A stretch of 64,000 bases of DNA from Escherichia coli (GCF_046105845.1 NZ_CP151004.1), one strand, 5' to 3'. Numbered from the stretch's first letter, positions 7,450 through 54,111 are shown. Numbers and translations are program-made. The notes: a model not told the origin generated them from the sequence alone.

Positions 7450-7616
7450 CGTGATCCCTTAAGCATCTTTTTTATGCTTACTTCGCCGTGGATACTACCA
7501 CGCACAGTGATGTGCGTGCCGGGGTTCACTTGCGAGCTCTTGTCTACGTAGTGGCTCGCGAAGGAACCTTTAAAAACTGTCTTAGTGTCAGGGGCAGTTT
7601 TTAAAGATTTCCTGAA

Positions 7617-7640
7617 TAGCCGGGGGATTTCCCCGGCATC
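7617..7640. terminator. Hairpin at the sdhB 3' end (possible partial terminator or attenuator between the sdh and suc transcripts)
   Basis: GCCGGGGgatttCCCCGGC inverted repeat at 7619-7637 immediately after the sdhB stop; only a weak U-run follows on the minus strand. Confidence 0.4.
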
Positions 7641-7649
7641 AACATTTAA

Positions 7650-8366
7650 TTACGCATTACGTTGCAACAACATCGACTTGATATGGCCGATGGCGCGCGT
7701 CGGGTTCAGCCCCTTCGGACATACACTGACGCAGTTCATGATGCTGTGACAGCGGAATACACTGAATGCATCGCTCAAACCGTCGAGGCGGCTGTCAGTC
7801 TCGGTATCACGGCTATCGATCAGGAAACGATATGCCGCTAACAAGCCTGCCGGGCCGATAAACTTATCGGGATTCCACCAGAAAGACGGACAAGAGGTTG
7901 AACAACATGCGCAGAGAATACATTCATACAGCCCGTCGAGTTTTTCGCGCTGCTCTGGCATCTGTAAATGCTCGCGAGCTGGCGGATTTTGTCCATTATT
8001 CAACAGGTAAGGCTTAATTTTCTCATATTGCGCATAGAATTGTCCCATGTCTACCACCAAATCGCGGATCACCGGTAAACCTGGCAGCGGGCGAATCACA
8101 ATCTTCTTGCCCGGCTGGTTGAGTGCCGAAATCGGGGTAATACAGGCCAGACCATTCTTGCCGTTCATGTTCAGACCGTCGGAACCGCACACACCTTCAC
8201 GGCAGGAGCGACGGAACGACAGGCTGGGATCTTTCTCTTTCAGCTGGATAAGCGCATCCAGCAGCATCATGTCACGACCTTCTTCCGCTTCCAGGGTGTA
8301 ATCCTGCATACGCGGAGCATCATCAACATCCGGGTTATAGCGATAAATTGAAAACTCGAGTCTCAT
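7650..8366 (-). CDS. sdhB: Succinate dehydrogenase iron-sulfur subunit
   Basis: 238-aa ORF MRLEFSIYRYNPDVDDAPRMQDYTLEAEEGRDMMLLDALIQLKEKDPSLSFRRSCREGVCGSDG...; Cys clusters for the 2Fe-2S, 4Fe-4S and 3Fe-4S centres. Confidence 0.97.
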   Translation of the reverse strand: MRLEFSIYRYNPDVDDAPRMQDYTLEAEEGRDMMLLDALIQLKEKDPSLSFRRSCREGVCGSDGLNMNGKNGLACITPISALNQPGKKIVIRPLPGLPVIRDLVVDMGQFYAQYEKIKPYLLNNGQNPPAREHLQMPEQREKLDGLYECILCACCSTSCPSFWWNPDKFIGPAGLLAAYRFLIDSRDTETDSRLDGLSDAFSVFRCHSIMNCVSVCPKGLNPTRAIGHIKSMLLQRNA

Positions 8367-13876: not shown

Positions 13877-16336
13877 ATGGACACCGTGAATATTTATCGA
13901 CTCTCTTTTATATCCTGCCTGGTCATGGCGATACCTTCCGCATTGGCGGTCGAATTCAACCTGAATGTCCTCGATAAATCGATGCGAGATCGCATTGATA
14001 TTTCATTATTAAAGGAAAAAGGGGGCATTGCTCCCGGTGAATATTTTGTTAGCGTTGCAGTAAATAACAACCAAATCAGTAACGGACAAAAAATTGACTG
14101 GAAAAAGAACGGTGACCAAACCATTCCGTGTATTAATGATTTACTGGTAGATAAATTTGGTTTAAAACCTGAAGTTCGTCAGTCGTTACCACGGTTAAAC
14201 CAGTGCGTCGATTTTAGCTCCCGGCCTGAAATTCTCTTCATTTTTGATCAGGCTAGCCAGCAACTGAATATCACTATTCCACAAGCCTGGCTGGCGTGGC
14301 ACTCAGATAACTGGACTCCCCCCTCAACATGGAAAGAAGGTGTCGCCGGCGTCCTGATGGATTACAACCTGTTTGCAAGCAGCTACCGCCCACAGGATGG
14401 TAGCAACAGCACTAACCTGAACGCCTATGGAACAGCCGGAATTAACGCCGGGGCATGGCGCTTACGCAGTGATTACCAGCTTAATAAGACCGATAGCGAA
14501 GATAACCATGACCAGTCAGGCGGAATATCGCGCACCTATCTTTTTCGTCCATTACCGCAATTAGGCTCTAAGTTAACCCTCGGCGAAACCGATTTCAGTT
14601 CCAATATTTTCGACGGCTTTTCTTATACCGGCGCGGCACTGGCAAGTGACGATCGGATGTTACCGTGGGAGCTACGCGGCTACGCCCCACAAATCAGCGG
14701 CATTGCACAAACCAACGCCACCGTCACCGTGAGTCACTCAGGGCGAGTTATTTACCAGAAAAAAGTCCCACCAGGTCCGTTTATCATTGATGACCTTAAT
14801 CAGTCCGTCCAGGGTACGTTGGATGTCAAAGTGACGGAAGAAGATGGTCGGGTGAACAATTTCCAGGTTTCGGCAGCATCGACGCCCTTCCTGACTCGCC
14901 AGGGACAGGTTCGCTATAAATTGGCCGCGGGTCAGCCACGGCCCTCCATGTCACATCAAACTGAAAATGAAACCTTTTTTAGCAATGAAGTTTCCTGGGG
15001 GATGCTGTCAAATACCTCGCTGTACGGCGGCCTGCTGATTTCGGGTGACGACTACCATTCTGCCGCAATGGGTATCGGGCAAAATATGCTCTGGCTTGGT
15101 GCATTGTCGTTTGATGTCACCTGGGCCAGTAGTCAGTTTGATACTCAGCAGGACGAGCGGGGCTTAAGTTACCGCTTTAATTACAGCAAACAAGTGGATG
15201 CCACTAACAGCACGATTTCGCTCGCCGCTTATCGCTTTTCAGATCGTCATTTTCACAGCTACGCCAACTATCTGGATCACAAATACAACGACAACGATGC
15301 GCAGGACGAAAAACAGACGATCAGCTTATCCGTGGGGCAACCGATTACCCCACTGAACCTCAATCTGTACGCCAACCTGCTGCATCAAACCTGGTGGAAT
15401 GCAGACGCCTCCACGACCGCCAACATCACGGCGGGTTTTAATGTTGATATTGGTAACTGGAGAGATATCTCGATCTCGACGTCATTCAATACAACCCATT
15501 ACGAAGATAAAGATCGCGACAATCAGATTTACCTGTCGATTTCGCTTCCCTTCGGTAACGGGGGGCGGGTCGGTTATGACATGCAAAACAGTAGTCAAAG
15601 CACCACGCACCGCATGTCGTGGAATGATACGTTGGATGAACGTAATAGCTGGGGCATGTCTACCGGACTGCAATCCGACCGTCCGGATAATGGAGCCCAG
15701 GTGAGCGGTAACTATCAGCACCTGAGTTCAGCGGGTGAGTGGGATATTTCTGGTACCTATGCCGCCAATGATTACAGTTCCGTCAGCAGCAGCTGGAGCG
15801 GTTCTTTCACGGCAACTCAATATGGTGCGGCGTTCCATCGTCGCAGCTCCACCAATGAACCACGTCTGATGGTCAGTACCGATGGCGTGGCAGATATTCC
15901 GGTTCAGGGCCATCTCGACTACACCAACCATTTTGGCATTGCGGTGGTGCCGTTGATTTCCAGTTATCAGCCTTCCACCGTGGCGGTGAACATGAATGAC
16001 TTACCCAACGGCGTAACAGTGGCAGAAAACGTTATCAAAGAAACGTGGATTGAAGGCGCGATAGGTTACAAATCACTGGCTTCCCGTTCCGGTAAAGACG
16101 TTAACGTCATCATTCGCAACGCCAGCGGTCAGTTCCCTCCCCTCGGTGCGGATATCCGCCAGGATGATAGCAGCATTAGCGTGGGGATGGTTGGCGAGGA
16201 AGGACACGCCTGGTTAAGTGGAGTCTCTGAAAATCAACAATTTACCGTGGTCTGGGGTGATAGCCAGCGTTGCTCGATCCATCTTCCTGAACATATGGAA
16301 GACACCGCAAATCGCCTGATTTTACCTTGTCATTAA
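13877..16336 (+). CDS. ybgQ: Fimbrial outer-membrane usher protein
   Basis: Large ORF (track: 13835..16336, 833 aa) with an usher-like N-terminal signal peptide MDTVNIYRLSFISCLVMAIPSALA. The exact start is uncertain (TTG 13835, ATG 13877 or GTG 13886). Confidence 0.88.
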   Translation: MDTVNIYRLSFISCLVMAIPSALAVEFNLNVLDKSMRDRIDISLLKEKGGIAPGEYFVSVAVNNNQISNGQKIDWKKNGDQTIPCINDLLVDKFGLKPEVRQSLPRLNQCVDFSSRPEILFIFDQASQQLNITIPQAWLAWHSDNWTPPSTWKEGVAGVLMDYNLFASSYRPQDGSNSTNLNAYGTAGINAGAWRLRSDYQLNKTDSEDNHDQSGGISRTYLFRPLPQLGSKLTLGETDFSSNIFDGFSYTGAALASDDRMLPWELRGYAPQISGIAQTNATVTVSHSGRVIYQKKVPPGPFIIDDLNQSVQGTLDVKVTEEDGRVNNFQVSAASTPFLTRQGQVRYKLAAGQPRPSMSHQTENETFFSNEVSWGMLSNTSLYGGLLISGDDYHSAAMGIGQNMLWLGALSFDVTWASSQFDTQQDERGLSYRFNYSKQVDATNSTISLAAYRFSDRHFHSYANYLDHKYNDNDAQDEKQTISLSVGQPITPLNLNLYANLLHQTWWNADASTTANITAGFNVDIGNWRDISISTSFNTTHYEDKDRDNQIYLSISLPFGNGGRVGYDMQNSSQSTTHRMSWNDTLDERNSWGMSTGLQSDRPDNGAQVSGNYQHLSSAGEWDISGTYAANDYSSVSSSWSGSFTATQYGAAFHRRSSTNEPRLMVSTDGVADIPVQGHLDYTNHFGIAVVPLISSYQPSTVAVNMNDLPNGVTVAENVIKETWIEGAIGYKSLASRSGKDVNVIIRNASGQFPPLGADIRQDDSSISVGMVGEEGHAWLSGVSENQQFTVVWGDSQRCSIHLPEHMEDTANRLILPCH

Positions 16337-16351
16337 TTAAGGAAATGAAAA

Positions 16352-17083
16352 ATGACATTTATGAAAGGACTTCCCCTTTTGTTGTTGATTGCCAGTCTCT
16401 GCAGCTACGCTGCGCTACAACCCGATCGCACTCGCATTGTGTTTAACGCTAATGATAAAGCCACCAGCCTGCGAGTGGATAATCGTAGCGATAAACTCCC
16501 CTACCTCGCTTATTCCTGGCTCGAAAATGAAAAAGGGGAGAAAAGCGATGATCTTCTGGTTGCCCTGCCACCGATACAACGTCTGGAACCGAAAGCAACA
16601 ACGCAGGTACGGATAGTAAAGCAAGTCTCGACCACAAAATTACCGGGCGATCGCGAAACGCTATTTTTCTACAATATGCGTGAAATTCCTCCCGCCCCGG
16701 AAAAAAATAGCGACCATGCCGTTCTGCAAGTCGCCATTCAGAGTCGTATCAAGGTATTCTGGCGACCGGCTGCATTACGCAAGAAAGCAGGAGAAAAGGT
16801 CGAACTGCAGTTACAGGTCAGCCAGCAGGGCAACCAACTGACACTGAAAAATCCTACCGCGTATTATCTGACCATTGCCTATCTGGGGAGAAATGAAAAA
16901 GGCGTTCTCCCGGGCTTCAAAACCGTGATGGTTGCGCCTTTTAGTACAGTAATTACAAACACCGGAAGTTATAGCGGCAGTCAGTTTTATCTCGGTTATA
17001 TGGATGATTACGGCGCGTTACGCATGACGACGCTCAATTGCAACGGACATTGCCGTTTACAAGCAGTGGAGGCGAAGAAATGA
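16352..17083 (+). CDS. ybgP: Periplasmic fimbrial chaperone (PapD-like)
   Basis: 243-aa [63 protein letters not shown]...; its stop overlaps the ybgO start. Confidence 0.9.
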
Positions 17084-25135: not shown

Positions 25136-26554
25136 TTATTTCCCCTTCCTCGCCGCCTCATACGCTGCCAACGTTCGTACTCTCGCTTCTTTGTGATCGA
25201 CAATCGGTTGCGGATAATCCAGCGTCACACCTGATTTATCTGCCCACTTCCACGGCTCATGCACCGCTTTCCCTGGTACATCGCGCAACTCTGGTAGCCA
25301 CCGGCGGATAAACTCGCCTTCGCGGTCAAATTTCTCGCCCTGGGTTGTCGGGTTAAAAATACGAAAATACGGCGCTGCATCGGTTCCGGTTGAAGCGGCC
25401 CACTGCCAGCCACCGTTATTGGCTGCCAAATCACCATCAATCAGCTGCGACACGAAATATCGCTCGCCTTCGCGCCAGTCGATCAATAAATCTTTCACCA
25501 AAAAACTGGCTGTAATCATCCGTAGCCGGTTATGCATCCAGCCAGTGCTGTTAAGCTGACGCATGGCAGCATCAACAATCGGGTATCCCGTTTTACCTTC
25601 TTGCCAGGCTTTAAAATGGGCGGGATTGCGCTGCCACTGCACACGATCCGTCCAGACAATAAACGGACGATGTTTACACAGCGAAGGATAATACGTCATC
25701 AAATGGCGGTAGAACTCGCGCCAGATCAACTCATTAAGCCAGACACTACCGGCCCCATCTTCCAGCGCCTGCGGCTGTTCCGCCAACAGGCGATGTAGAC
25801 ACTGGCGAGGCGATAACCCGCCCGTTGCCAGGCTGGCGGACAAACGGCTGGTACCTTCAACTGCCGGAAAATCTCGTTGTTGCTCATACTCTCCGGCACC
25901 GTTCTGGCAAAACTGGCGTAATTGCGCAATCGCCGCTTTTTCTTCCACCGGGAAATGCGCAGTATCGAAAGGCTGACGAGGATAACTCAGCGTAATGGAT
26001 GGCGCGGGAGCTATCGATCCGCTACTACGTACTTTTGGCGCAGCGACGCACTCCGGCATCCCTTCCCGCAACCGTTTCAGCCAGGCGTTTTTAAATGGCG
26101 TAAAGACTTTGTACATCTCATGATTGCCAGTCATCACCGTCCCCGGCGGCAGGATCACGCTGTCGTCAAATCCTTCACACACCACGTTACGCAGCGTTCT
26201 CTCAACCTGCACATCCCGCGCCCGCTCATTCACCTCATACTGATAGTTATAAAAAAGATGAGTAACGCTGTTTTCCGCGCACACCTGTTTAACTATTTCG
26301 ACGCTGGCGGCAAAGTCATCCACTTCACGGAACAATAAAGGAATGCCTTTTTCCGCCAGCGCGATTTGTAGCCCATTCAGTTGAGCATTGATAAGTTCAG
26401 CCTGACGCGGCGACACATTATGCGCCGCCCACTGGCGTGGGGTAGCGATATACAACGCCAGCACGCGCGCAGACGAATTGCGGCAGGCGGCAGCCAGCGC
26501 GAGATTATCGTGCTGACGTAAATCCTGGCGAAACCAGACCAGATGGGTAGTCAT
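25136..26554 (-). CDS. phr: Deoxyribodipyrimidine photolyase
   Basis: 472-aa ORF MTTHLVWFRQDLRQHDNLALAAACRNSSARVLALYIATPRQWAAH...; FAD-binding C-terminal domain. Confidence 0.96.
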   Translation of the reverse strand: MTTHLVWFRQDLRQHDNLALAAACRNSSARVLALYIATPRQWAAHNVSPRQAELINAQLNGLQIALAEKGIPLLFREVDDFAASVEIVKQVCAENSVTHLFYNYQYEVNERARDVQVERTLRNVVCEGFDDSVILPPGTVMTGNHEMYKVFTPFKNAWLKRLREGMPECVAAPKVRSSGSIAPAPSITLSYPRQPFDTAHFPVEEKAAIAQLRQFCQNGAGEYEQQRDFPAVEGTSRLSASLATGGLSPRQCLHRLLAEQPQALEDGAGSVWLNELIWREFYRHLMTYYPSLCKHRPFIVWTDRVQWQRNPAHFKAWQEGKTGYPIVDAAMRQLNSTGWMHNRLRMITASFLVKDLLIDWREGERYFVSQLIDGDLAANNGGWQWAASTGTDAAPYFRIFNPTTQGEKFDREGEFIRRWLPELRDVPGKAVHEPWKWADKSGVTLDYPQPIVDHKEARVRTLAAYEAARKGK

Positions 26555-27060
26555 AAAACTCCTGCATGGCGCAAGTTAATCACACGCGGCCAAAGTTCGA
26601 AATAACGCTGCCCTGAAAGCCAGGCGTCAGGATAAAGCGCCATATAGTGTTTGATACGCATCAGCGGCGCAAGAAGCGGTTGCTCGCCACGGCGATAACT
26701 GTCGATAAGCGCCGCCAGCTGCTGGCGTTCTGTGGAATCAATATGCGGGCGAAAATACCCCTGAACGTGCATCAAAACGTTGGTGTGATCGCGCGGGTTG
26801 GCGGGATGAGAAAGCAAAACAATTACGCGTTGGCGGTACTGGCTGTAAAAATCATCCAGATTTTGCCACTGATGAATATCAGCCACAAACGGGCCAAGTT
26901 TGCGGTATTCCGGCTGAGAATGAGCCAGAAAGACGAGTTTATAGCGGCTGTGATAATCGAGAAGCGCCCCGCGCGTTAAGCCTCGCTCTTTAAGACGGTA
27001 TAACTCCTGCAAAGCAAAAATGCGAATAAGGGTGCTGTCATCAAATCGTTGTAGATTCAT
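26551..27060 (-). CDS. ybgA: DUF1722-family protein, cotranscribed upstream of phr
   Basis: Start set at MNLQRFDDSTLIRIFALQELYRL (169 aa) with an AGGAG RBS; the track ORF begins at 27129. Its stop overlaps the phr start. Confidence 0.88.
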   Translation of the reverse strand: MNLQRFDDSTLIRIFALQELYRLKERGLTRGALLDYHSRYKLVFLAHSQPEYRKLGPFVADIHQWQNLDDFYSQYRQRVIVLLSHPANPRDHTNVLMHVQGYFRPHIDSTERQQLAALIDSYRRGEQPLLAPLMRIKHYMALYPDAWLSGQRYFELWPRVINLRHAGVL

Positions 27061-27161
27061 TACTGCTCCTGAACGGTTTACAGGAGTAAGTGTAGACGGC
27101 GAAAAGAAAAAAACCGCCAGCGTTTCCACTAGCGGTTTTCAATGTATTCAAAACTCAGCAA

Positions 27162-27368
27162 TCAGTAAAAATCACCAGTTGCCTTTTCGGCCTGATCCAT
27201 CCACACCGGTTTATCGCTGGTTTTCGACCAGACGCGGTGCAGGTAGCTGTAAAAGCGGGCGCGGTCTTTCCAGAAAAGCATGAAAGGCAGCGCCAGAACG
27301 CCCGCTGCAACCGCATAAGTACGGCGTAAAAAGATAAGCCATGCAGGATATTCTCTGTAGAGTTCCAT
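27162..27368 (-). CDS. ybfA: Small inner-membrane protein YbfA (DUF2517)
   Basis: 68-aa [71 protein letters not shown]. Confidence 0.85.
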
Positions 27369-27574
27369 ACTTTTCTCCCCCTTTTGTATCTACCCGGTGA
27401 ATGGCACCGGAAAAATGAATTTGTTTATCTGATGAAAATAGTACCGCCTTTTGTGTAATTTTACTACTCATCCGACCACTTATTTTTGCTTATTGATGGT
27501 TTATTTACATTCACCGTGTAATTAAGTTACATGAAAGTTAAATTAATACTAATCATTAGTTAAATCATGGCTTT

Positions 27575-27605
27575 TGCCATTTTTATACTTTTTTTACACC
27601 CCGCC
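27575..27605 (+). promoter_or_regulatory. KdpE response-regulator binding site in the kdpFABC promoter
   Basis: CATTTTTATACTTTTTTTACACCCCGCCCG about 80 bp upstream of kdpF; matches my recollection of the characterised KdpE operator. Confidence 0.65.
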
Positions 27606-27680
27606 CGCAGATTTTTGCGAAATCTTTGCAGCCAGAATTCTACCCTTCCGGTATCACTTTTAGGCCACTGGAGGTGCACT

Positions 27681-27770
27681 GTGAGTGCAGGCGTGATAGC
27701 CGGCGTGTTGCTGGTGTTTTTATTACTGGGTTATCTGGTTTATGCCCTGATCAATGCGGAGGCGTTCTGA
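27681..27770 (+). CDS. kdpF: K+-transporting ATPase small subunit KdpF (29 aa)
   Basis: GTG start with GGAGG RBS; [29 protein letters not shown]; stop TGA overlaps the kdpA ATG (TGATG). Confidence 0.85.
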
Positions 27771-29443
27771 TGACTGCGCAAGGGTTCTTACTGATCGCCA
27801 CGTTTTTACTGGTGTTAATGGTGCTGGCACGTCCTTTAGGCAGCGGGCTGGCGCGGCTGATTAATGACATACCTCTTCCCGGTACAGCGGGTGTTGAACG
27901 CGTACTCTTTCGTTTACCTGGCGTCTCTGACAGTGAGATGAACTGGAAGCAGTATCTCTGTGCCATTCTCGGCCTGAACATGCTGGGGCTGGCGGTGCTG
28001 TTTTTTATGTTGCTCGGTCAGCACTATCTGCCGCTTAATCCACAGCAGTTGCCAGGGCTGTCATGGGATCTGGCGCTGAATACCGCCGTCAGCTTTGTCA
28101 CTAATACCAACTGGCAATCTTACAGCGGTGAAACCACGTTGAGCTATTTCAGCCAGATGGCTGGCTTAACGGTGCAAAACTTTCTTTCTGCCGCCAGCGG
28201 GATTGCGGTGATTTTTGCCCTCATCCGTGCATTTACCCGCCAGGGCATGAGCACACTCGGGAATGCCTGGGTCGATCTGCTACGCATCACGTTATGGGTG
28301 CTAGTCCCTGTGGCGTTGTTGATCGCACTGTTTTTTATTCAACAAGGTGCATTGCAAAACTTTCTGCCCTATCAGGCGGTGAATACCGTTGAAGGAGCGC
28401 AACAGCTGTTACCCATGGGGCCAGTAGCTTCTCAGGAAGCGATCAAAATGCTCGGTACTAACGGCGGTGGCTTCTTTAATGCCAACTCCTCGCATCCGTT
28501 TGAAAACCCAACCGCACTGACCAACTTCGTGCAAATGCTGGCGATCTTCTTGATCCCAACGGCACTGTGCTTTGCCTTTGGCGAAGTGGCGGGCGATCGC
28601 CGTCAGGGGCGCATGTTGCTGTGGGCGATGTCGGTGATTTTTGTCATCTGCGTAGGCGTGGTGATGTGGGCAGAAGTTCAGGGTAATCCTCATCTGCTGG
28701 CACTGGGCGCGGACAGCAGCATCAATATGGAAGGTAAAGAGAGCCGTTTCGGCGTGCTGGTCAGTAGCCTGTTTGCGGTCGTGACTACGGCGGCTTCCTG
28801 CGGCGCGGTGATTGCGATGCATGATTCGTTTACCGCCCCCGGTGGCATGGTGCCGATGTGGCTGATGCAAATTGGTGAAGTGGTATTCGGCGGTGTCGGT
28901 TCTGGTCTTTACGGCATGATGCTGTTTGTCCTGCTGGCGGTGTTTATTGCCGGGCTGATGATTGGTCGTACACCGGAATATCTGGGTAAAAAAATCGACG
29001 TACGCGAGATGAAACTGACCGCACTGGCGATTCTGGTCACCCCGACGCTGGTGCTGATGGGCGCGGCGCTGGCAATGATGACCGACGCCGGACGTAGCGC
29101 CATGCTCAACCCTGGCCCGCATGGTTTTAGCGAAGTGCTGTACGCCGTGTCATCCGCCGCTAACAACAACGGAAGCGCCTTTGCCGGATTAAGCGCCAAC
29201 TCTCCATTCTGGAACTGTTTACTGGCGTTCTGCATGTTTGTCGGTCGCTTCGGGGTGATTATCCCGGTGATGGCAATTGCCGGTTCGCTGGTGAGTAAAA
29301 AGAGCCAACCCGCCAGCTCCGGCACGCTGCCAACGCACGGCCCGCTGTTTGTTGGCCTGTTAATCGGCACCGTATTGCTGGTTGGCGCACTGACCTTTAT
29401 CCCTGCCCTGGCGCTTGGTCCGGTGGCGGAATATCTCTCCTGA
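27770..29443 (+). CDS. kdpA: K+-transporting ATPase subunit A (K+ channel-like)
   Basis: 557-aa frame [33 protein letters not shown]...; the track ORF begins upstream at 27626. Confidence 0.96.
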
Positions 29444-29465
29444 TGATATTGAGTGAGCACTGAAT

Positions 29466-31514
29466 ATGAGTCGTAAACAACTGGCGCTATTCGAACCAAC
29501 ACTTGTCGTTCAGGCGCTGAAAGAAGCGGTGAAAAAATTAAACCCGCAGGCGCAATGGCGCAATCCGGTGATGTTTATCGTCTGGATCGGCAGTCTGCTG
29601 ACCACCTTTATTAGCATCGCAATGGCAAGCGGTGCGATGCCTGGCAATGTGCTGTTTAGCGCGGCAATTAGCGGCTGGCTGTGGGTCACCGTACTGTTCG
29701 CTAATTTCGCCGAGGCGCTGGCAGAAGGCCGCAGTAAAGCGCAGGCCAACAGTCTGAAAGGGGTGAAAAAAACTGCCTTTGCCCGCAAGCTTCGTGAGCC
29801 GAAATATGGCGCTGCGGCGGACAAAGTTCCTGCCGATCAACTGCGTAAAGGCGATATCGTACTGGTAGAAGCTGGCGATATTATCCCCTGCGATGGTGAA
29901 GTCATTGAAGGCGGCGCATCGGTCGATGAAAGCGCCATCACCGGGGAATCGGCTCCGGTGATCCGTGAATCCGGCGGCGATTTTGCCTCCGTCACCGGCG
30001 GCACGCGTATTCTTTCTGACTGGCTGGTAATTGAGTGCAGCGTTAACCCCGGCGAGACATTTCTGGATAGGATGATCGCGATGGTGGAAGGCGCACAGCG
30101 ACGCAAAACGCCGAACGAGATTGCCCTGACCATTCTCCTGATTGCCCTGACTATCGTCTTTTTACTGGCAACCGCCACGCTGTGGCCGTTTTCCGCGTGG
30201 GGCGGTAATGCAGTCAGCGTAACGGTACTGGTGGCGCTGCTGGTCTGTCTGATCCCAACGACCATTGGCGGTCTGTTGTCAGCGATCGGCGTCGCCGGGA
30301 TGAGTCGGATGCTGGGCGCGAATGTGATTGCCACCAGCGGACGTGCAGTTGAAGCGGCGGGTGACGTTGACGTCCTGCTGCTGGATAAAACCGGCACCAT
30401 CACACTCGGTAACCGTCAGGCGTCGGAGTTTATCCCCGCGCAGGGCGTGGATGAAAAAACGCTGGCTGACGCCGCACAACTGGCTTCGCTGGCTGATGAA
30501 ACGCCGGAAGGCCGCAGTATTGTGATCCTCGCCAAGCAACGTTTTAACCTGCGCGAGCGCGATGTGCAGTCGCTCCATGCCACCTTTGTACCGTTTACTG
30601 CGCAAAGCCGGATGAGCGGGATCAACATCGACAACCGCATGATCCGTAAAGGTTCTGTCGATGCCATTCGCCGCCATGTTGAGGCTAACGGTGGTCACTT
30701 CCCTGCCGATGTCGATCAAAAAGTCGATCAGGTTGCGCGTCAGGGGGCCACGCCGCTGGTGGTGGTGGAAGGTTCCCGTGTGCTGGGCGTTATTGCGCTG
30801 AAAGATATCGTCAAAGGCGGTATTAAAGAGCGCTTCGCCCAGCTGCGCAAAATGGGCATTAAAACGGTGATGATTACCGGCGATAACCGTCTGACTGCCG
30901 CCGCGATTGCTGCGGAAGCGGGCGTCGATGATTTCCTCGCCGAAGCGACACCGGAGGCCAAGCTGGCATTGATTCGTCAGTATCAGGCAGAAGGCCGTTT
31001 AGTGGCGATGACCGGCGACGGCACCAACGATGCTCCGGCGCTGGCGCAGGCAGATGTCGCGGTGGCGATGAACTCCGGTACTCAGGCGGCGAAAGAAGCG
31101 GGCAATATGGTGGATCTCGACTCTAACCCGACCAAGTTGATCGAGGTGGTGCATATTGGCAAACAGATGCTGATGACCCGTGGCTCGCTCACTACCTTCA
31201 GCATTGCCAACGATGTAGCGAAATACTTCGCCATTATTCCGGCGGCGTTCGCGGCAACATATCCGCAGTTAAATGCGCTGAACATCATGCGCCTGCATTC
31301 GCCCGACTCCGCAATCCTCAGTGCGGTCATTTTCAACGCCTTGATTATCGTCTTTTTGATTCCCCTAGCGTTAAAAGGCGTGAGTTATAAACCGCTTACC
31401 GCTTCTGCCATGTTGCGCCGTAACTTATGGATTTACGGTCTGGGTGGGCTGCTGGTGCCATTTATTGGTATCAAAGTCATTGATTTACTGCTGACCGTTT
31501 GCGGTCTGGTGTGA
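29466..31514 (+). CDS. kdpB: K+-transporting P-type ATPase catalytic subunit B
   Basis: 682-aa ORF with P-type motifs DKTGTIT and [12 protein letters not shown]. Confidence 0.97.
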
Positions 31515-31522
31515 GGTTTACC

Positions 31523-32095
31523 ATGCGTGGATTACGTCCGGCATTATCGACATTTATCTTTCTGTTATTGATTACTGGCGGCGTTTACCCGCTGCTAACC
31601 ACCGCGCTGGGGCAATGGTGGTTTCCCTGGCAGGCCAACGGTTCGTTGATTCGTGAAGGTGATACGGTGCGCGGTTCGGCATTAATCGGGCAGAATTTTA
31701 CCGGCAACGGCTATTTTCATGGTCGCCCGTCGGCAACGGCAGAAATGCCCTATAATCCACAGGCTTCTGGCGGGAGCAATCTGGCGGTCAGTAATCCTGA
31801 GCTGGATAAACTAATAGCCGCACGCGTTGCTGCATTACGGGCCGCTAACCCGGATGCCAGCGCGAGCGTTCCGGTTGAACTGGTGACGGCATCGGCAAGC
31901 GGGCTGGACAATAACATCACCCCGCAAGCGGCAGCCTGGCAGATCCCACGCGTGGCGAAAGCGCGTAATCTCAGCGTTGAACAGCTCACGCAACTGATCG
32001 CAAAATACAGCCAACAACCGCTGGTGAAATATATCGGCCAGCCGGTCGTCAACATTGTCGAACTCAATCTGGCGCTGGATAAGCTTGATGAATAA
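31523..32095 (+). CDS. kdpC: K+-transporting ATPase subunit C
   Basis: Start set at [27 protein letters not shown] (190 aa); the track ORF begins at 31499. Confidence 0.93.
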
Positions 32096-34772
32096 CGAAC
32101 CCTTACGTCCCGATCCCGATCGTCTGCTGGAACAAACTGCCGCGCCGCATCGGGGGAAGCTGAAAGTTTTCTTCGGTGCCTGTGCGGGCGTCGGGAAGAC
32201 CTGGGCGATGCTGGCAGAGGCCCAGCGACTGCGGGCGCAAGGGCTGGATATTGTGGTTGGCGTGGTTGAAACCCACGGGCGGAAAGATACCGCCGCAATG
32301 CTGGAAGGGCTGGCTGTTCTGCCGCCCAAACGCCAGGCGTACCGTGGGCGGCACATCAGCGAGTTTGATCTCGATGCCGCCCTCGCCCGCCGTCCGGCGC
32401 TGATCTTAATGGACGAACTGGCGCACAGTAATGCGCCAGGTTCTCGTCATCCTAAACGCTGGCAGGACATCGAAGAGCTGCTGGAAGCGGGCATTGATGT
32501 TTTCACAACCGTCAACGTTCAGCATCTGGAAAGTCTGAATGATGTGGTCAGCGGCGTCACCGGAATTCAGGTACGGGAAACCGTGCCCGATCCTTTTTTC
32601 GATGCCGCCGACGACGTGGTGCTGGTGGACTTGCCCCCGGACGATCTGCGCCAGCGGCTGAAAGAAGGCAAAGTCTATATTGCCGGGCAGGCGGAGCGCG
32701 CCATTGAACATTTTTTTCGCAAAGGCAATCTGATCGCCCTGCGCGAACTGGCACTGCGCCGTACTGCCGATCGCGTAGATGAGCAAATGCGCGCCTGGCG
32801 GGGGCATCCTGGCGAAGAGAAAGTGTGGCACACGCGCGACGCGATCCTTTTATGCATCGGGCATAACACCGGCAGTGAGAAACTGGTCCGCGCGGCGGCG
32901 CGGCTGGCGTCGAGGCTGGGTAGCGTCTGGCACGCGGTGTATGTTGAAACCCCTGCCCTGCATCGCTTACCGGAGAAAAAACGTCGGGCAATTCTCAGCG
33001 CCTTACGTCTGGCGCAGGAGCTGGGCGCGGAGACGGCAACACTTTCTGATCCAGCGGAAGAGAAAGCGGTAGTGCGTTATGCCCGTGAACATAATCTCGG
33101 CAAGATTATTCTCGGTCGCCCGGCCTCACGCCGCTGGTGGCGTCGGGAAACGTTTGCTGACCGACTGGCGCGCATCGCCCCCGATCTCGATCAGGTGCTG
33201 GTCGCGCTTGATGAACCACCCGCCCGCACGATTAACAACGCGCCGGATAGCCGCTCTTTTAAAGACAAGTGGCGGGTACAGATTCAGGGATGCGTGGTTG
33301 CCGCCGCGTTATGCGCCGTTATCACCTTAATTGCCATGCAGTGGCTGATGGCGTTTGATGCCGCCAACCTGGTGATGCTGTATCTACTTGGCGTGGTGGT
33401 GGTGGCGCTATTTTATGGACGCTGGCCTTCGGTGGTTGCTACCGTCATTAATGTGGTGAGTTTCGATCTCTTTTTTATCGCCCCACGCGGCACGCTCGCC
33501 GTCTCTGATGTGCAATATCTGCTGACCTTCGCGGTGATGTTAACCGTCGGGCTGGTGATCGGGAACCTTACTGCTGGCGTGCGTTATCAGGCGCGGGTAG
33601 CCCGTTACCGCGAGCAACGCACACGGCACTTATATGAAATGTCGAAAGCACTGGCGGTGGGCCGCAGTCCGCAGGACATCGCCGCCACCAGCGAACAATT
33701 TATTGCCTCCACGTTTCATGCCCGCAGCCAGGTGTTGCTGCCTGATGACAACGGTAAATTGCAGCCGTTAACACATCCGCAAGGAATGACGCCGTGGGAC
33801 GATGCCATCGCGCAGTGGGGTTTTGATAAAGGCCTGCCTGCGGGTGCGGGCACCGACACGTTACCCGGCGTGCCGTACCAGATTTTGCCGTTAAAAAGCG
33901 GTGAGAAAACCTACGGACTGGTGGTGGTGGAGCCGGGGAATCTGCGCCAGTTGATGATCCCGGAACAGCAGCGCCTGCTGGAGACGTTTACGCTGTTAGT
34001 CGCCAATGCCCTTGAGCGGCTGACGCTAACCGCCAGCGAAGAACAGGCGCGGATGGCAAGCGAACGTGAACAGATCCGCAACGCCCTGCTGGCGGCGCTT
34101 TCGCATGATTTACGCACTCCGCTTACGGTGCTGTTCGGTCAGGCAGAAATCTTAACGCTCGATCTGGCGAGCGAAGGATCGCCCCACGCCCGCCAGGCCA
34201 GCGAGATTCGTCAGCATGTGCTGAACACGACCCGACTGGTGAATAATCTACTGGATATGGCGCGAATTCAGTCCGGCGGCTTTAATTTGAAGAAAGAGTG
34301 GTTAACGCTGGAAGAAGTGGTCGGCAGCGCGCTGCAAATGCTGGAACCGGGTTTATCGTCGCCTATCAATCTTTCTCTGCCAGAACCGCTGACCTTAATC
34401 CGCGTTGACGGGCCACTGTTTGAACGGGTGCTGATTAATCTGCTGGAGAACGCGGTGAAATACGCGGGTGCACAGGCCGAAATTGGTATCAATGCCCACG
34501 TTGAGTGCGAAAATCTAGAACTGGATGTCTGGGATAACGGCCCCGGTCTTCCACCAGGCCAGGAGCAGACGATATTTGATAAGTTTGCTCGCGGGAATAA
34601 AGAGTCGGCGGTACCGGGTGTAGGGCTTGGGTTGGCAATTTGTCGGGCGATAGTGGATGTACACGGCGGCACCATTACCGCATTCAACCGACCGGAAGGT
34701 GGTGCCTGTTTTCGTGTTACACTTCCCCAGCAAACAGCCCCTGAACTTGAAGAATTTCATGAGGATATGTGA
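32088..34772 (+). CDS. kdpD: Sensor histidine kinase KdpD
   Basis: Start set at [41 protein letters not shown] (894 aa), overlapping kdpC by 8 nt; H-box LSHDLRTPL and an HATPase domain. Confidence 0.96.
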
Positions 34773-35446
34773 CAAACGTTCTGATTGTTGAAGATGAACA
34801 GGCTATTCGTCGCTTTCTGCGCACGGCGCTGGAGGGCGATGGGATGCGCGTCTTTGAGGCCGAAACGCTGCAACGCGGCTTGCTGGAAGCGGCAACCCGT
34901 AAGCCAGATTTGATTATTCTCGATCTCGGCCTGCCCGATGGTGATGGGATTGAGTTTATCCGCGACCTGCGCCAGTGGAGCGCGGTGCCGGTGATTGTGC
35001 TTTCCGCACGTAGCGAAGAGAGCGACAAAATCGCCGCGCTGGATGCCGGAGCGGATGATTACCTGAGTAAGCCATTTGGTATTGGCGAATTGCAGGCCCG
35101 TCTGCGCGTCGCTTTACGCCGCCACTCCGCCACCACCGCGCCCGATCCGCTGGTGAAATTTTCCGATGTTACCGTCGATTTAGCGGCTCGTGTGATCCAT
35201 CGCGGTGAGGAAGAGGTGCATCTCACACCAATTGAGTTTCGCCTGCTGGCGGTGCTGCTCAACAATGCCGGAAAAGTGCTCACCCAGCGCCAGCTCCTTA
35301 ACCAGGTGTGGGGACCAAACGCGGTCGAACACAGTCATTATTTGCGTATTTATATGGGGCATCTGCGACAAAAACTGGAGCAAGATCCCGCCCGCCCCCG
35401 CCACTTCATTACTGAAACCGGTATTGGGTATCGGTTTATGCTTTAG
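34769..35446 (+). CDS. kdpE: Response regulator KdpE (OmpR family)
   Basis: GTG start overlapping the kdpD stop; 225 aa [31 protein letters not shown]...; receiver plus winged-helix domains. Confidence 0.96.
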   Translation: MTNVLIVEDEQAIRRFLRTALEGDGMRVFEAETLQRGLLEAATRKPDLIILDLGLPDGDGIEFIRDLRQWSAVPVIVLSARSEESDKIAALDAGADDYLSKPFGIGELQARLRVALRRHSATTAPDPLVKFSDVTVDLAARVIHRGEEEVHLTPIEFRLLAVLLNNAGKVLTQRQLLNQVWGPNAVEHSHYLRIYMGHLRQKLEQDPARPRHFITETGIGYRFML

Positions 35447-35455
35447 GCGGTTAAA

Positions 35456-35556
35456 TGCTGGATCCGGCATGAACGCCTTATCCGGCCTACAAAATAGCGC
35501 AAATTCAATATATTGCACCATCTTCCCAGGCCTGATAAGCGTAGCGCATCAGGCAG
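35456..35556. repeat. REP elements between convergent kdpE and pgm
   Basis: ATCCGGCATGAACGCCTTATCCGGCCTAC and CCTGATAAGCGTAGCGCATCAGGC units. Confidence 0.7.
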
Positions 35557-35564
35557 TCATAAGT

Positions 35565-35596
35565 AAAAAAGGGCGATCTTCCGACCGCCCTTTTTC
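35565..35596. terminator. Bidirectional rho-independent terminator (pgm / kdpE)
   Basis: AAAAAAGGGCGatcttccgaCCGCCCTTTTT: a GC hairpin flanked by an A-run and a T-run. Confidence 0.7.
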
Positions 35597-35609
35597 TTAT
35601 TAAATGTGT

Positions 35610-37250
35610 TTACGCGTTTTTCAGAACTTCGCTAACAATCTCAACCGCTTCTTTCTCAATCTGCTTGCGATGTTCTTCCCCGAGGAAGCTTTCGCAATAA
35701 ATCTTGTACGCGTCTTCCGTGCCTGACGGACGCGCGGCGAACCAGCCGTTGTCAGTCATCACTTTCAGACCGCCAATAGAAGCACCGTTGCCCGGAGCAG
35801 CAGTCAGGCGTGCGGTGATCGGGTCACCTGCCAGGGTGCTGGCGCTCACCATTTCCGGAGACAGCTTAGACAGCGCCGCTTTTTGTGCGGAAGTCGCAGC
35901 TGCCTGCAAACGGTTGTAGCTCGGCGCACCAAAGCGTTTTGCCAGTTCGTTGTAGTGTTCCTGCGGGTTCTTACCGGTGACAGCGGTGATTTCCGCCGCC
36001 AGCAGACACATGATGATGCCGTCTTTGTCGGTGGACCACGGCGTGCCGTCGAAACGCAGGAAGGAAGCCCCTGCGCTCTCTTCGCCGCCAAAGCCGAAGC
36101 TGCCGTCGAACAGACCATCAACAAACCATTTGAAACCTACCGGGACTTCTACCAGCTTACGGCCCAAATCATTGACCACACGGTCGATCATCGCAGAAGA
36201 AACCAGCGTTTTACCGACAGCAACATCTTTGCCCCACTGCGGACGATGCTGGAACAGGTAGTTGATCGCCACCGCCAGGTAGTGGTTCGGATTCATCAAA
36301 CCTGCCGGAGTGACGATACCGTGACGGTCATAATCCGGGTCGTTAGCAAACGCCAGATCGAACTTATCACGCAGTGCCAGCAGGCCCGCCATCGCACACT
36401 CGGAGGAGCAGTCCATACGGATCGCGCCGTCTTTATCGAGGTGCATAAAGCGGAAGGTTTGATCGACCTGATCGTTAACGATGGTCAGGTTGAGGTTGTA
36501 ATACTCGCCAATGCGCTTCCAGTATTCGATACCGGAACCACCCAGCGGATCAACGCCCAGCGTCAGGCCCGCTTTCTGAATCGCCGCCATATCAACGATA
36601 TCGGCCAGCCCTTCCACAAACGGCTGCACCAGATCCTGCTCTTTCACATGACCGGATGCCATCGCTTCGTCGAGGGAGATACGCTTCACGCCTTTCAGGC
36701 CATCAGCCATCAGTGCGTTGGCCCTGTCTTCCACCACTTTAGTGACGTTGGTATCAGCCGGGCCACCATTTGGCGGATTGTACTTGATACCACCATCTTC
36801 CGGCGGGTTATGAGACGGTGTGATCACGATACCGTCTGCCAGCGGGCCACCTTTTTTATTGTGAACCAGGATGGCATTGGAAACGGCAGGCGTCGGGGTG
36901 AAGCCATTGTTTTCCTGCACAATGACATCAACGCCATTCGCTGCCAGCACTTCCAGTACGGAAATGAACGCAGGCTCGGACAGGGCGTGAGTATCTTTAC
37001 CCACATAGCAAGGGCCAGTGATGCCGTTTTTCGCACGTTCTTCAGCAATTGCCTGAGCGATCGCCAGAATGTGCGGCTCGTTAAAGCTGTGGCGCGCTGC
37101 ACTGCCACGGTGACCGGAAGTACCGAATTTCACCGCGTGCTCCGCATTCCCTGCTTCTGGTTTCAGTACATAATATTGCGCCGTCAGTTGGGCGACGTTA
37201 ATCAAATCACTCTGTTGTGCAGGTTGGCCTGCACGATTGTGGATTGCCAT
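35610..37250 (-). CDS. pgm: Phosphoglucomutase
   Basis: Start set at [35 protein letters not shown] (546 aa); active-site TSGHRGS. The track ORF runs to 37301. Confidence 0.96.
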
Positions 37251-37275
37251 TGCTTTGTCCTTTGTCTGCAACGTT

Positions 37276-37821
37276 TTAGATAGTTCCGCAAACCTTCTCA
37301 ATCAATTCCGCCGGGAATTGCATCGACTGCATGATGTGTTCGATCATGCTGCATTTACGGCCGGTGTTGGTGTTGGTGATCACCCAATACGGCGTGCCAG
37401 GCACATGTTTCGGCTTGGTCTGATTACCATTTTTCAGCAGCGTTTGTTCATCTGCCGCAAAGTAAACGCGTGTACGACCGTGCAACGATTCCGTTGCTTC
37501 GGCAAACGCCTGGGCGTCAAGAGAATATAGTGTAGACAACAGCAGCATAAAGCGATTGACCGCTCGCTTTTGCTCTGCGTATTCATCCGAAAGCAGAAGT
37601 TCACGCATTGCGCGAACCTTGTCTTTAATCGTTTTGACCGGCTTCGCTTCGACGATAGCAGGTGACGCAACGCGAACCTCTTTCGTCACCGGAGCAGCAG
37701 GCTGTGATGCGGCGGAAAATTTCAACATACGCCGTAAAATGTCGGATGCGCTCTCGCCGATATGCTTAGTGTGGCTGGCAATATAGCTGTAGAGTTCATC
37801 ATCAACTTCAATCGTTTTCAT
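37276..37821 (-). CDS. seqA: Negative modulator of replication initiation SeqA
   Basis: Start set at [35 protein letters not shown] (181 aa); the track ORF runs to 37899. Confidence 0.95.
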
Positions 37822-53406: not shown

Positions 53407-53483
53407 TGGCTACGTAGCTCAGTTGGTTAGAGCACATCACTCATAATGATGGGGTCACAGGTTCGAATCCCGTCGTAGCCACC
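53407..53483 (+). tRNA. metT: tRNA-Met (CAU, elongator)
   Basis: GGCTACGTAGCTCAGTTGGTTAGAGCACATCACTCATAATGATGGGGTCACAGGTTCGAATCCCGTCGTAGCCACCA; anticodon loop CTCATAA. Confidence 0.95.
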
Positions 53484-53492
53484 ATCTTTTTT

Positions 53493-53578
53493 GCGGGAGT
53501 GGCGAAATTGGTAGACGCACCAGATTTAGGTTCTGGCGCCGCAAGGTGTGCGAGTTCAAGTCTCGCCTCCCGCACCAT
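53493..53578 (+). tRNA. leuW: tRNA-Leu (UAG)
   Basis: GCGGGAGTGGCGAAATTGGTAGACGCACCAGATTTAGGTTCTGG...CTCGCCTCCCGCACCA; long variable arm; anticodon TAG. Confidence 0.93.
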
Positions 53579-53600
53579 TCACCAGAAAGCGTTGTACGGA

Positions 53601-53675
53601 TGGGGTATCGCCAAGCGGTAAGGCACCGGTTTTTGATACCGGCATTCCCTGGTTCGAATCCAGGTACCCCAGCCA
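53601..53675 (+). tRNA. glnU: tRNA-Gln (UUG)
   Basis: TGGGGTATCGCCAAGCGGTAAGGCACCGGTTTTTGATACCGGCATTCCCTGGTTCGAATCCAGGTACCCCAGCCA. Confidence 0.95.
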
Positions 53676-53709
53676 TCTTCTTCGAGTAAGCGGTTCACCG
53701 CCCGGTTAT

Positions 53710-53784
53710 TGGGGTATCGCCAAGCGGTAAGGCACCGGTTTTTGATACCGGCATTCCCTGGTTCGAATCCAGGTACCCCAGCCA
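53710..53784 (+). tRNA. glnW: tRNA-Gln (UUG), second identical copy
   Basis: Identical in sequence to glnU. Confidence 0.95.
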
Positions 53785-53799
53785 TCGAAGAAACAATCT

Positions 53800-53876
53800 G
53801 GCTACGTAGCTCAGTTGGTTAGAGCACATCACTCATAATGATGGGGTCACAGGTTCGAATCCCGTCGTAGCCACCA
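53800..53876 (+). tRNA. metU: tRNA-Met (CAU, elongator), second identical copy
   Basis: Identical in sequence to metT. Confidence 0.95.
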
Positions 53877-53924
53877 AATTCTGAATGTGTCGAATAAGTT
53901 CGGCAAATTCACAAACCAATTTGT

Positions 53925-53999
53925 TGGGGTATCGCCAAGCGGTAAGGCACCGGATTCTGATTCCGGCATTCCGAGGTTCGAATCCTCGTACCCCAGCCA
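53925..53999 (+). tRNA. glnV: tRNA-Gln (CUG)
   Basis: TGGGGTATCGCCAAGCGGTAAGGCACCGGATTCTGATTCCGGCATTCCGAGGTTCGAATCCTCGTACCCCAGCCA. Confidence 0.95.
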
Positions 54000-54036
54000 A
54001 TTTATTCAAGACGCTTACCTTGTAAGTGCACCCAGT

Positions 54037-54111
54037 TGGGGTATCGCCAAGCGGTAAGGCACCGGATTCTGATTCCGGCATTCCGAGGTTCGAATCCTCG
54101 TACCCCAGCCA
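54037..54111 (+). tRNA. glnX: tRNA-Gln (CUG), second identical copy
   Basis: Identical in sequence to glnV. Confidence 0.95.

Follow-up and report, generated by a model that had tools for sequence, protein, structure and literature searches.

The kdp locus examined here is the standard kdpFABCDE of an Escherichia genome, with gene boundaries as annotated in K-12, and the start/stop overlaps at three of its five gene junctions are not above chance for operon junctions. The account that we consider very probable takes the junctions one by one: the overlaps reflect genome compaction, those between kdpF and kdpA (F-A) and between kdpD and kdpE (D-E) probably couple translation as well, and the one between kdpC and kdpD (C-D) is not a strong coupler. 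A first-pass annotation of the window (a 64,000-nucleotide stretch of Escherichia coli DNA, GCF_046105845.1 NZ_CP151004.1) had gone further and read the overlaps as a sign that translation is strongly coupled all the way from the structural genes to the two-component regulators. While coupling at F-A and D-E is reasonable by geometry and conservation, a strong chain is not supported, since kdpB starts 22 nt beyond kdpA, the C-D junction drifts among relatives instead of being conserved, Shine-Dalgarno pairing is weakest at kdpD, and the literature treats kdpFABC and kdpDE as a tandem of two operons (PMC7535926), with the transcripts of the former mostly reported to end before kdpD.

In a profile search, the six kdp proteins were full-length matches to NCBIfam equivalog models, with bit scores (cut-offs in parentheses) of 74 (56) for KdpF, 1002 (388) for KdpA, 1278 (528) for KdpB, 335 (153) for KdpC, 1831 (1123) for KdpD, and 488 (325) for KdpE. 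The genes lie on a single strand in the order F-A-B-C-D-E, identical to that of K-12, and the ORF lengths given in Table 1 equal the K-12 lengths. Pseudogenes and miscalled kdp genes were ruled out, as none of the six ORFs is truncated or disrupted. The 29-residue KdpF is the chain present in the solved KdpFABC structures, where PDB chains 6hra_D and 5mrw_D begin with MSAGVI, and complexes purified from cells with the native operon contain KdpF. Gene callers restricted to ATG starts would indeed miss kdpF, as the first-pass annotation warned, although the warning is moot given that kdpF is annotated in every RefSeq record examined.

Table 1. Genes, junctions and flanking signals of the kdp locus (positions count from the first nucleotide of the window)
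Feature	Coordinates	Strand	Description
KdpE-binding direct repeat	27582..27598	+	TTTATA-N5-TTTACA of the kdpFABC promoter; single exact match in the window
kdpF	27681..27770	+	29 aa; GTG start; GGAGG 6 nt upstream; NF011332, positions 1-29 of 29
F-A junction	27768..27772	+	TGATG, 1-nt overlap; kdpF TGA 27768-27770, kdpA ATG 27770-27772
kdpA	27770..29443	+	557 aa; ATG start; GGAGG within 3' end of kdpF; TIGR00680
A-B junction		+	gap, +22 nt
kdpB	29466..31514	+	682 aa; starts 22 nt past kdpA stop; TIGR01497
B-C junction		+	gap, +8 nt
kdpC	31523..32095	+	190 aa; starts 8 nt past kdpB stop; TGAGG Shine-Dalgarno motif; TIGR00681
C-D junction	32088..32095	+	ATGAATAA, 8-nt overlap; kdpD ATG 32088, kdpC TAA 32093-32095
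kdpD	32088..34772	+	894 aa; ATG start; NF007793, residues 1-894 vs model positions 1-895
D-E junction	34767..34772	+	AUGUGA; 4-nt overlap GTGA; kdpE GTG 34769-34771, kdpD TGA 34770-34772
kdpE	34769..35446	+	225 aa; GTG start; TGAGGA Shine-Dalgarno motif; NF007820, positions 1-225 of 225
G+C-rich hairpin	35566..35595	.	inverted repeat with an A run on one side and a T run on the other

The gene identities, like the geometry of the junctions and their pattern of conservation, are direct observations. The closest known system, kdpFABCDE of K-12 MG1655 (b4513, b0698-b0694), shares the order, lengths, GTG starts of kdpF and kdpE, and all five junction distances; its junction sequences are identical save for a few flanking substitutions, and its proteins are 93 to 99.6% identical. 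The two genomes differ in the surroundings of the locus: in K-12, kdp lies between the rhsC element on its upstream side and speFL-speF-potE on its downstream side, both of which are missing here. The annotated geometry is likewise identical in the RefSeq records of K-12 MG1655, strain 118UI, and strain N3, and the distances of -1, 22, 8, -8, and -4 from F-A to D-E already appear in supplementary Table S2 of Huber et al. 2023 (PMC10666635). The first-pass description of the junctions (a GTG-started kdpF joined to kdpA by TGATG, an 8-nt overlap of kdpC and kdpD, and a kdpE GTG start overlapping the kdpD TGA stop) thus proved exact to the base, and the comparison with K-12 coordinates that it had proposed as a check returned the same starts.

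Overlaps of this kind are common in the vicinity. Among the 39 co-directional neighbor pairs of the syntenic 64 kb in E. coli strain N3, 10 overlap, and so do 10 of the 22 same-strand pairs that lie less than 60 nt apart. Three overlaps among the five kdp junctions are therefore expected: the binomial probability of three or more is 0.41 at p = 0.45, and 0.09 to 0.11 at the rate of all co-directional pairs. Across the E. coli genome, no junction classes are more frequent than -4, -1, and -8, and 707 of 2,987 unidirectional pairs have distances from -8 to +6 nt (PMC10666635). The three kdp overlaps are part of this normal operon compaction. Because the K-12 coordinates match, the distances are in print, and the frequency is that of neighboring operons, the junctions as such are an ordinary and already known feature.

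The geometry would change if other in-frame starts were used in vivo, for which in-frame alternative start codons of kdpC and kdpD offer an opening. For example, kdpC could begin at GTG 31511, an alternative shared with Salmonella that would create a fourth overlap (GTGA with the kdpB stop), and kdpD could begin at TTG 32085 or 32055. We give this reading almost no credence and reject the upstream starts. With the starts chosen here, the alignments to the NCBIfam profiles begin at residue 1 or 2, Shine-Dalgarno pairing at the alternatives is poor or badly spaced (-3.3 to +0.6 kcal/mol), and Klebsiella and Kluyvera lack the kdpC GTG. Furthermore, the kdpF alternatives at 27567 and 27615 and one kdpA alternative at 27626 lie upstream of the probable transcription start, and the PDB chains, though construct sequences, carry the annotated N termini. 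At D-E, the AUGUGA sequence serves both genes: its AUG is the final sense codon of kdpD, its GUG starts kdpE, and its UGA terminates kdpD. This places kdpE among the 18 K-12 genes whose annotated start is the GUG within an AUGUG motif (Kohl et al. 2022, Table 2, PMC9841429). In contrast to ambiguous AUGUG sites, kdpE is predicted by these authors to be without start ambiguity, and the AUG in kdp is the last sense codon of kdpD rather than part of an untranslated leader.

Shine-Dalgarno duplex energies, in kcal/mol, were -10.6 for kdpF, -9.5 for kdpA, -4.7 for kdpB, -6.3 for kdpC, -3.1 for kdpD, and -6.1 for kdpE, so that kdpD has the weakest pairing of the six. At the three overlaps, pairing for the downstream gene within the 3' end of the upstream gene varies, being strong for kdpA, moderate for kdpE, and weak for kdpD. 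The sites of kdpA and kdpE are good enough for independent initiation, a point that speaks against the account favored here. The contribution of the Shine-Dalgarno sequence to termination-reinitiation differs from gene to gene in the literature. When a 101-nt segment at each junction and a 91-nt segment of the kdpF leader were folded and compared with shuffled controls, none of the five junctions showed stable RNA structure beyond the controls (z from -1.68 to +1.02). Nothing thus points to a start site hidden by structure, which would make initiation depend on translation of the gene upstream. As the kdpF leader did not fold more stably than shuffled sequence either, a mechanism of structure unmasking was dropped.

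To follow each junction across species, we combined a KdpC search of genome contigs, which yielded nine loci, all from Enterobacteriaceae, with annotated plasmid or chromid kdp loci, from which the wider diversity was drawn. The D-E overlap was present in 17 of 17 loci from three phyla. It measures -4 (GTGA) in all 12 Enterobacteriaceae loci, each of which keeps the kdpE GTG start, and also -4 in Azospirillum, Rhizobium, Acetobacter, and Paracoccus, while it is -8 in Listeria and -11 in Lactiplantibacillus. The same 4-nt overlap of the kdpE start with the kdpD stop is reported for Mycobacterium tuberculosis (PMC8358298), which differs in that its kdpDE is divergent from kdpFABC and hence has no C-D junction; across prokaryotes, the median distance where an OmpR-family regulator follows KdpD is -3.4 (PMC10666635). 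The F-A distance of -1 with a GTG kdpF start was likewise found in all 12 Enterobacteriaceae loci, at KdpA identities of 80 to 100%, and reads TGATG except for TAATG in one E. coli locus. Alphaproteobacteria have gaps instead (+2, +10, and +69), with an overlap in none of the three loci where kdpF is annotated; this absence, too, counts against the favored account. A small GTG-started kdpF ORF whose end overlaps the kdpA start codon is also known from Mycobacterium smegmatis, where it was initially misannotated (PMC5401905); there, in contrast, the gene has a 120-nt 5' untranslated region and a SigF-type promoter, and its start was verified by lacZ fusions. The C-D junction behaves differently: it is -8 in Escherichia, -4 in Salmonella, and +1 or +2 in Klebsiella and Kluyvera, while some other phyla have gaps of +87 to +216; the pan-prokaryote median is +20.6, and among the loci examined the 8-nt overlap was found only in Escherichia.

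How ribosomes behave at these junctions we infer from experiments on other gene pairs; our literature search found no published experiments on kdp coupling, the kdpD/kdpE overlap, or ribosome profiling of kdp. Four of five native E. coli overlapping pairs tested were coupled, the exception being bioBF (PMC6728339), so overlap by itself is no proof of coupling. Nevertheless, because -1 and -4 overlaps have been shown to couple in other native pairs, coupling at F-A and D-E is plausible, an interpretation supported by the conservation of both junctions. The closest parallels are hyfHI, astDB, ydbH-ynbE, and menDH (Huber et al. 2019, 2023), which are likewise co-directional neighbors, overlap at distances of -4 or -1, and carry a Shine-Dalgarno motif within the upstream gene; their coupling is known from dual reporters, whereas kdp resembles them in sequence. 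Coupling drops steeply with distance (PMC10666635), and reinitiation is described in the same source as nearly lost at about 20 nt. F-A, C-D, and D-E fall within the coupling range of -8 to about +6 nt, while A-B (+22) and B-C (+8) are outside it or at its edge.

Along the operon, ribosomes would load at the strong site of kdpF and, after 29 codons, terminate on top of the kdpA AUG. kdpA would then probably be read by two sets of ribosomes, those that initiate afresh at its strong GGAGG within kdpF and those that reinitiate after terminating there. This double supply may help equal output of two subunits of one complex. kdpB and kdpC would start independently at their own sites. At C-D, where a very weak site is combined with an AUG placed 8 nt ahead of the kdpC stop, probably no more than a small fraction of the ribosomes goes on to kdpD, so that read-through transcripts may raise kinase synthesis modestly. 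The GTGA overlap and moderate site at D-E make up the usual arrangement of a kinase and its response regulator, and probably tie KdpE synthesis to KdpD synthesis; in keeping with this, the KdpD:KdpE ratio is reported to stay constant on induction (Surmann 2014, as cited in PMC4985592).

The transcripts on which this would take place probably begin downstream of the KdpE-binding repeat, whose half-site sequences and footprint (-72 to -50) are published (PMC3264566); judging from the footprint, the kdpFABC transcription start would lie near 27650. The hairpin beyond kdpE likely functions as a two-way terminator between the convergent kdpE and pgm. A consensus promoter and terminator scan of positions 27300 to 35700 detected no promoter on the plus strand, the outcome to be expected where transcription depends on an activator, and no terminator-like site at the C-D boundary; on whether kdpDE has an internal promoter, or transcripts stop before kdpD, the scan is therefore neutral. 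A search with Rfam matched nothing around kdp; its matches in the window were confined to the seven tRNA genes at 53408 to 54111. Most E. coli kdpFABC transcripts are reported to end before kdpD (Altendorf 1992, as cited in PMC5401905), and some long transcripts, according to earlier work cited in the same paper, cover both operons.

These data bear on three other readings. The overlaps could be neutral by-products of genome compaction, with each kdp gene initiated independently and ratios set by site strength and mRNA level, which would agree with a recognizable Shine-Dalgarno sequence before every start (strong for kdpA, moderate for kdpE), the free drift of C-D among close relatives (-8, -4, +1, and +2), the F-A gap in alphaproteobacteria, the uncoupled overlap of bioBF, and the lack of junction structure beyond shuffled controls. 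We nonetheless consider it unlikely, since neutrality sits poorly with a D-E overlap in 17 of 17 loci of three phyla, a kdpE GTG start and an F-A distance of -1 in 12 of 12 Enterobacteriaceae despite KdpA identities as low as 80%, and coupling in four of the five overlaps tested in E. coli. At the other extreme stands the efficient hand-on of ribosomes from kdpF through kdpC and kdpD to kdpE that underlies the first-pass claim and would have the regulators made in step with the pump. The overlap geometry at three junctions, the long transcripts cited in PMC5401905, and the rise of KdpD and KdpE by at least 10-fold on induction (Surmann 2014, as cited in PMC4985592) are in line with it. However, that rise is explained equally well by read-through transcription, reinitiation is almost lost over distances like the 22 nt between kdpA and kdpB, the junction with the weakest Shine-Dalgarno pairing is not conserved, and kdpFABC transcripts mostly end before kdpD according to the work cited above. 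Moreover, 5,000 to 8,000 KdpFABC complexes per cell (PMC3938482) stand against a listed protein abundance of 3.7 ppm for kdpE, a figure for non-inducing conditions, and we regard the hand-on as very improbable.

Alternatively, it is tempting to speculate that the Escherichia-specific C-D overlap and its very weak site form a calibrated translational valve on kinase synthesis, an idea that we hold only tentatively and think rather doubtful. If it were true, a small, fixed fraction of the ribosomes finishing kdpC would move backward and reinitiate at the AUG of kdpD. On read-through transcripts, the sensor kinase would then be made in proportion to the pump, Kdp autoregulation would gain a further layer at the level of translation, and AUGUGA at D-E would fix the kinase-to-regulator ratio.

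Under the junction-by-junction account, the three overlaps differ in standing. The kdpC/kdpD overlap is recent and variable and gives no evidence that the pump genes are strongly coupled to the regulator genes, the kdpF/kdpA overlap characterizes the family Enterobacteriaceae, and the kinase/regulator overlap of kdpD and kdpE is ancient and general. The result confirms the canonical gene boundaries of the kdp locus and places its start/stop overlaps among those that are routine in E. coli operons.

All features that the first-pass annotation had described for kdpFABCDE, with start/stop overlaps at three of the five junctions, were found in place on reading window positions 27400-35700 and translating all six putative genes. 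Each product scores far above the cut-off of its own curated NCBIfam equivalog model, and the chosen start codons are supported because these alignments begin at residue 1 or 2. The arrangement is already annotated and published. A comparison with K-12 coordinates, proposed in the first-pass annotation, gave full agreement with the RefSeq annotation of MG1655 at all five junctions (1, 8, and 4 nt shared by kdpF/kdpA, kdpC/kdpD, and kdpD/kdpE; gaps of 22 nt for kdpA-kdpB and 8 nt for kdpB-kdpC), and strains 118UI and N3 have the same geometry. Huber et al. 2023 give the five distances in their table of E. coli neighbours (supplementary Table S2; PMC10666635), and Kohl et al. 2022 (PMC9841429) place kdpE among the K-12 genes whose start is the GUG in an AUGUG motif; they list it as "atGTG" and predict no ambiguity. 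The kdp region was matched in 5,425 of 5,426 complete E. coli genomes, the best matches at ~98% identity.

Features of the kdp region and its surroundings (window coordinates; negative distance, overlap; pairing, predicted with the 16S rRNA 3' end)
Feature	Position	Start, stop	Product (aa)	Distance to next gene (nt)	Pairing (kcal/mol)
kdpF	27681-27770	GTG, TGA	29	-1 (TGATG)	-10.6
kdpA	27770-29443	ATG, TGA	557	+22	-9.5
kdpB	29466-31514	ATG, TGA	682	+8	-4.7
kdpC	31523-32095	ATG, TAA	190	-8 (ATGAATAA)	-6.3
kdpD	32088-34772	ATG, TGA	894	-4 (GTGA)	-3.1
kdpE	34769-35446	GTG, TAG	225		-6.1
Small hairpin ATGGC-TTTT-GCCAT, then T run	27567-27580
KdpE-binding repeat TTTATA-N5-TTTACA	27582-27598
AUGUGA at kdpD/kdpE	34767-34772
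kdpE-pgm spacer	35455-35595
REP-like inverted pair	35477-35488, 35528-35539
G+C-rich hairpin, flanking A and T runs	35566-35595
Seven tRNA genes (Met, Leu, Gln, Gln, Met, Gln, Gln)	53408-54111

In the loci compared, the three overlaps differ in breadth: the kdpD-kdpE overlap is general, the kdpF-kdpA overlap an Enterobacteriaceae trait, and the 8-nt kdpC-kdpD overlap specific to Escherichia. The eight Escherichia loci are the window, K-12, 118UI, two more E. coli, E. albertii, E. whittamii, and an Escherichia sp.; plasmid loci were taken as annotated in RefSeq, and in Enterobacteriaceae other than Escherichia the starts are those aligning with the window proteins. In all 12 Enterobacteriaceae loci kdpE starts with GTG, as does kdpF, there preceded by GGAGGTG; one E. 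coli locus has TAATG in place of TGATG. The medians over 1,695 genomes agree with this comparison (KdpA-KdpB, 14 nt; KdpB-KdpC, 12.1 nt; KdpC-KdpD, 20.6 nt; KdpD to a following OmpR-family regulator, -3.4 nt; PMC10666635, Tables S4 and S5). A 4-nt kdpE/kdpD overlap also occurs in Mycobacterium tuberculosis (PMC8358298), and M. smegmatis kdpF begins with GTG and runs into the start codon of kdpA (PMC5401905).

Distances between consecutive kdp genes (nt)
Group	F-A	A-B	B-C	C-D	D-E
Escherichia, 8 loci	-1	+22	+8	-8	-4
Salmonella	-1	+20	+8	-4	-4
Klebsiella, 2 species	-1	+21	+10	+1 or +2	-4
Kluyvera	-1	+20	+10	+2 (-1 from adjacent in-frame ATG)	-4
Azospirillum	+10	+13	+10	+87	-4
Rhizobium	+69	209, small ORF between	+75	+108	-4
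Acetobacter	+2	+14	+10	-1	-4
Paracoccus	kdpF not annotated	+11	+10	+3	-4
Lactiplantibacillus	kdpF not annotated	+48	+18	+216	-11
Listeria innocua	kdpF not annotated	+13	small ORF between	none, kdpDE precedes kdpA	-8

Three overlaps in five junctions are no more than chance. Among unidirectional E. coli gene pairs the commonest configuration is -4, then -1 and -8, and 707 of 2,987 pairs lie at -8 to +6 nt (PMC10666635). As a background rate we took annotated gene neighbours from the 64-kb N3 segment that is syntenic with the window, kdp excluded: 10 of 39 co-directional pairs overlap (sucC-sucD, sdhC-sdhD, sdhD-sdhA, ybgP-ybgO, pxpB-pxpC, pxpC-pxpA, ybgA-phrB, uof-fur, ybeZ-ybeY, and gltJ-gltK), or 10 of the 22 less than 60 nt apart. 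The probability of at least three overlaps in five junctions is 0.41 at p = 0.45 and ~0.1 against the rate for all co-directional pairs.

The overlaps depend on which starts are used. Given the KdpE-binding repeat and a published KdpE footprint of -72 to -50 (PMC3264566), transcription would start near 27650, ~30 nt upstream of the kdpF GTG, and the upstream in-frame codons at 27567 and 27615 (kdpF frame) and 27626 (kdpA frame) would therefore lie outside the mRNA. In solved KdpFABC structures, KdpF is a 29-residue chain with the N terminus MSAGVI; expression was, in at least one system, from the native operon under its own promoter (PMC7535926). Predicted 16S pairing is strong for kdpF and kdpA, moderate for kdpC, kdpE, and kdpB, and weakest for kdpD, and the alternative starts all pair poorly or are wrongly spaced. 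One of these, a kdpC GTG at 31511, in frame and four codons upstream of the ATG, would form GTGA with the kdpB stop (31511-31514) and, if used, raise the overlaps to four of five junctions; it pairs poorly, without a usable Shine-Dalgarno motif. Salmonella has this codon too, but Klebsiella and Kluyvera lack it.

Several observations concern the surroundings. The small hairpin directly upstream of the KdpE-binding repeat includes the in-frame ATG at 27567. Both K-12 neighbours of kdp are absent from the window: the rhsC element, from between ybfA and ybgA (26551-27368), and speFL-speF-potE, from between kdpE and pgm (35446-37301). This compact arrangement is shared by N3, whose gene order is the closest to that of the window; in 118UI a 495-nt hypothetical gene separates kdpE from pgm. 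The N3 annotation calls kdpB (locus L018, 10476-12523) and kdpE (15778-16454) pseudogenes with frameshifts; in the window the two genes are intact. The G+C-rich hairpin in the kdpE-pgm spacer looks like a two-way terminator for these convergent genes. The tRNA genes correspond to the E. coli metT-leuW-glnUW-metU-glnVX cluster. None of the complete E. coli genomes in the collection searched reached 99% identity to the kdp query; the window flanks gave full-length matches at ~98.5% among the matches listed. The window may come from a lineage with few complete E. coli genomes, or from a Shigella. KdpC is 98% identical to Escherichia albertii and 97% to E. coli representatives, and the E. albertii kdpB reading frame (L003, 4501-6492) lacks 57 nt (19 codons) relative to E. 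coli without a shift of frame.

The first-pass annotation had read the overlaps as strong translational coupling from the structural genes through to the regulators. Coupling at kdpF-kdpA and kdpD-kdpE is plausible by analogy with native E. coli short-overlap pairs, in four of five of which the downstream gene depended on upstream translation (PMC6728339), and it is consistent with a KdpD:KdpE ratio reported as constant while both proteins rise at least 10-fold on induction (as cited in PMC4985592). The kdpE start lies inside AUGUGA, whose AUG is the last kdpD codon, and a ribosome starting there would stop immediately at the UGA beside the kdpE GUG; at this position Escherichia, Salmonella, and Klebsiella have ATGTGA and Kluyvera has CTGTGA. 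The kdpA and kdpE sites are, by predicted pairing, also adequate for independent initiation, and at none of the five junctions is the predicted fold more stable than that of shuffled sequence. It is unlikely that ribosomes pass without a break from the pump genes to the regulators, because the 22-nt kdpA-kdpB gap breaks the chain, the kdpD site is the weakest and the kdpC-kdpD junction not conserved, kdpFABC and kdpDE are described as two tandem operons (PMC7535926), and most E. coli kdpFABC transcripts reportedly end before kdpD (as cited in PMC5401905). Reinitiation drops steeply with distance and is nearly gone by ~20 nt (PMC10666635). The coupling interpretation is partly reasonable but overstated, and the kdp overlaps are an unremarkable feature of a familiar operon.
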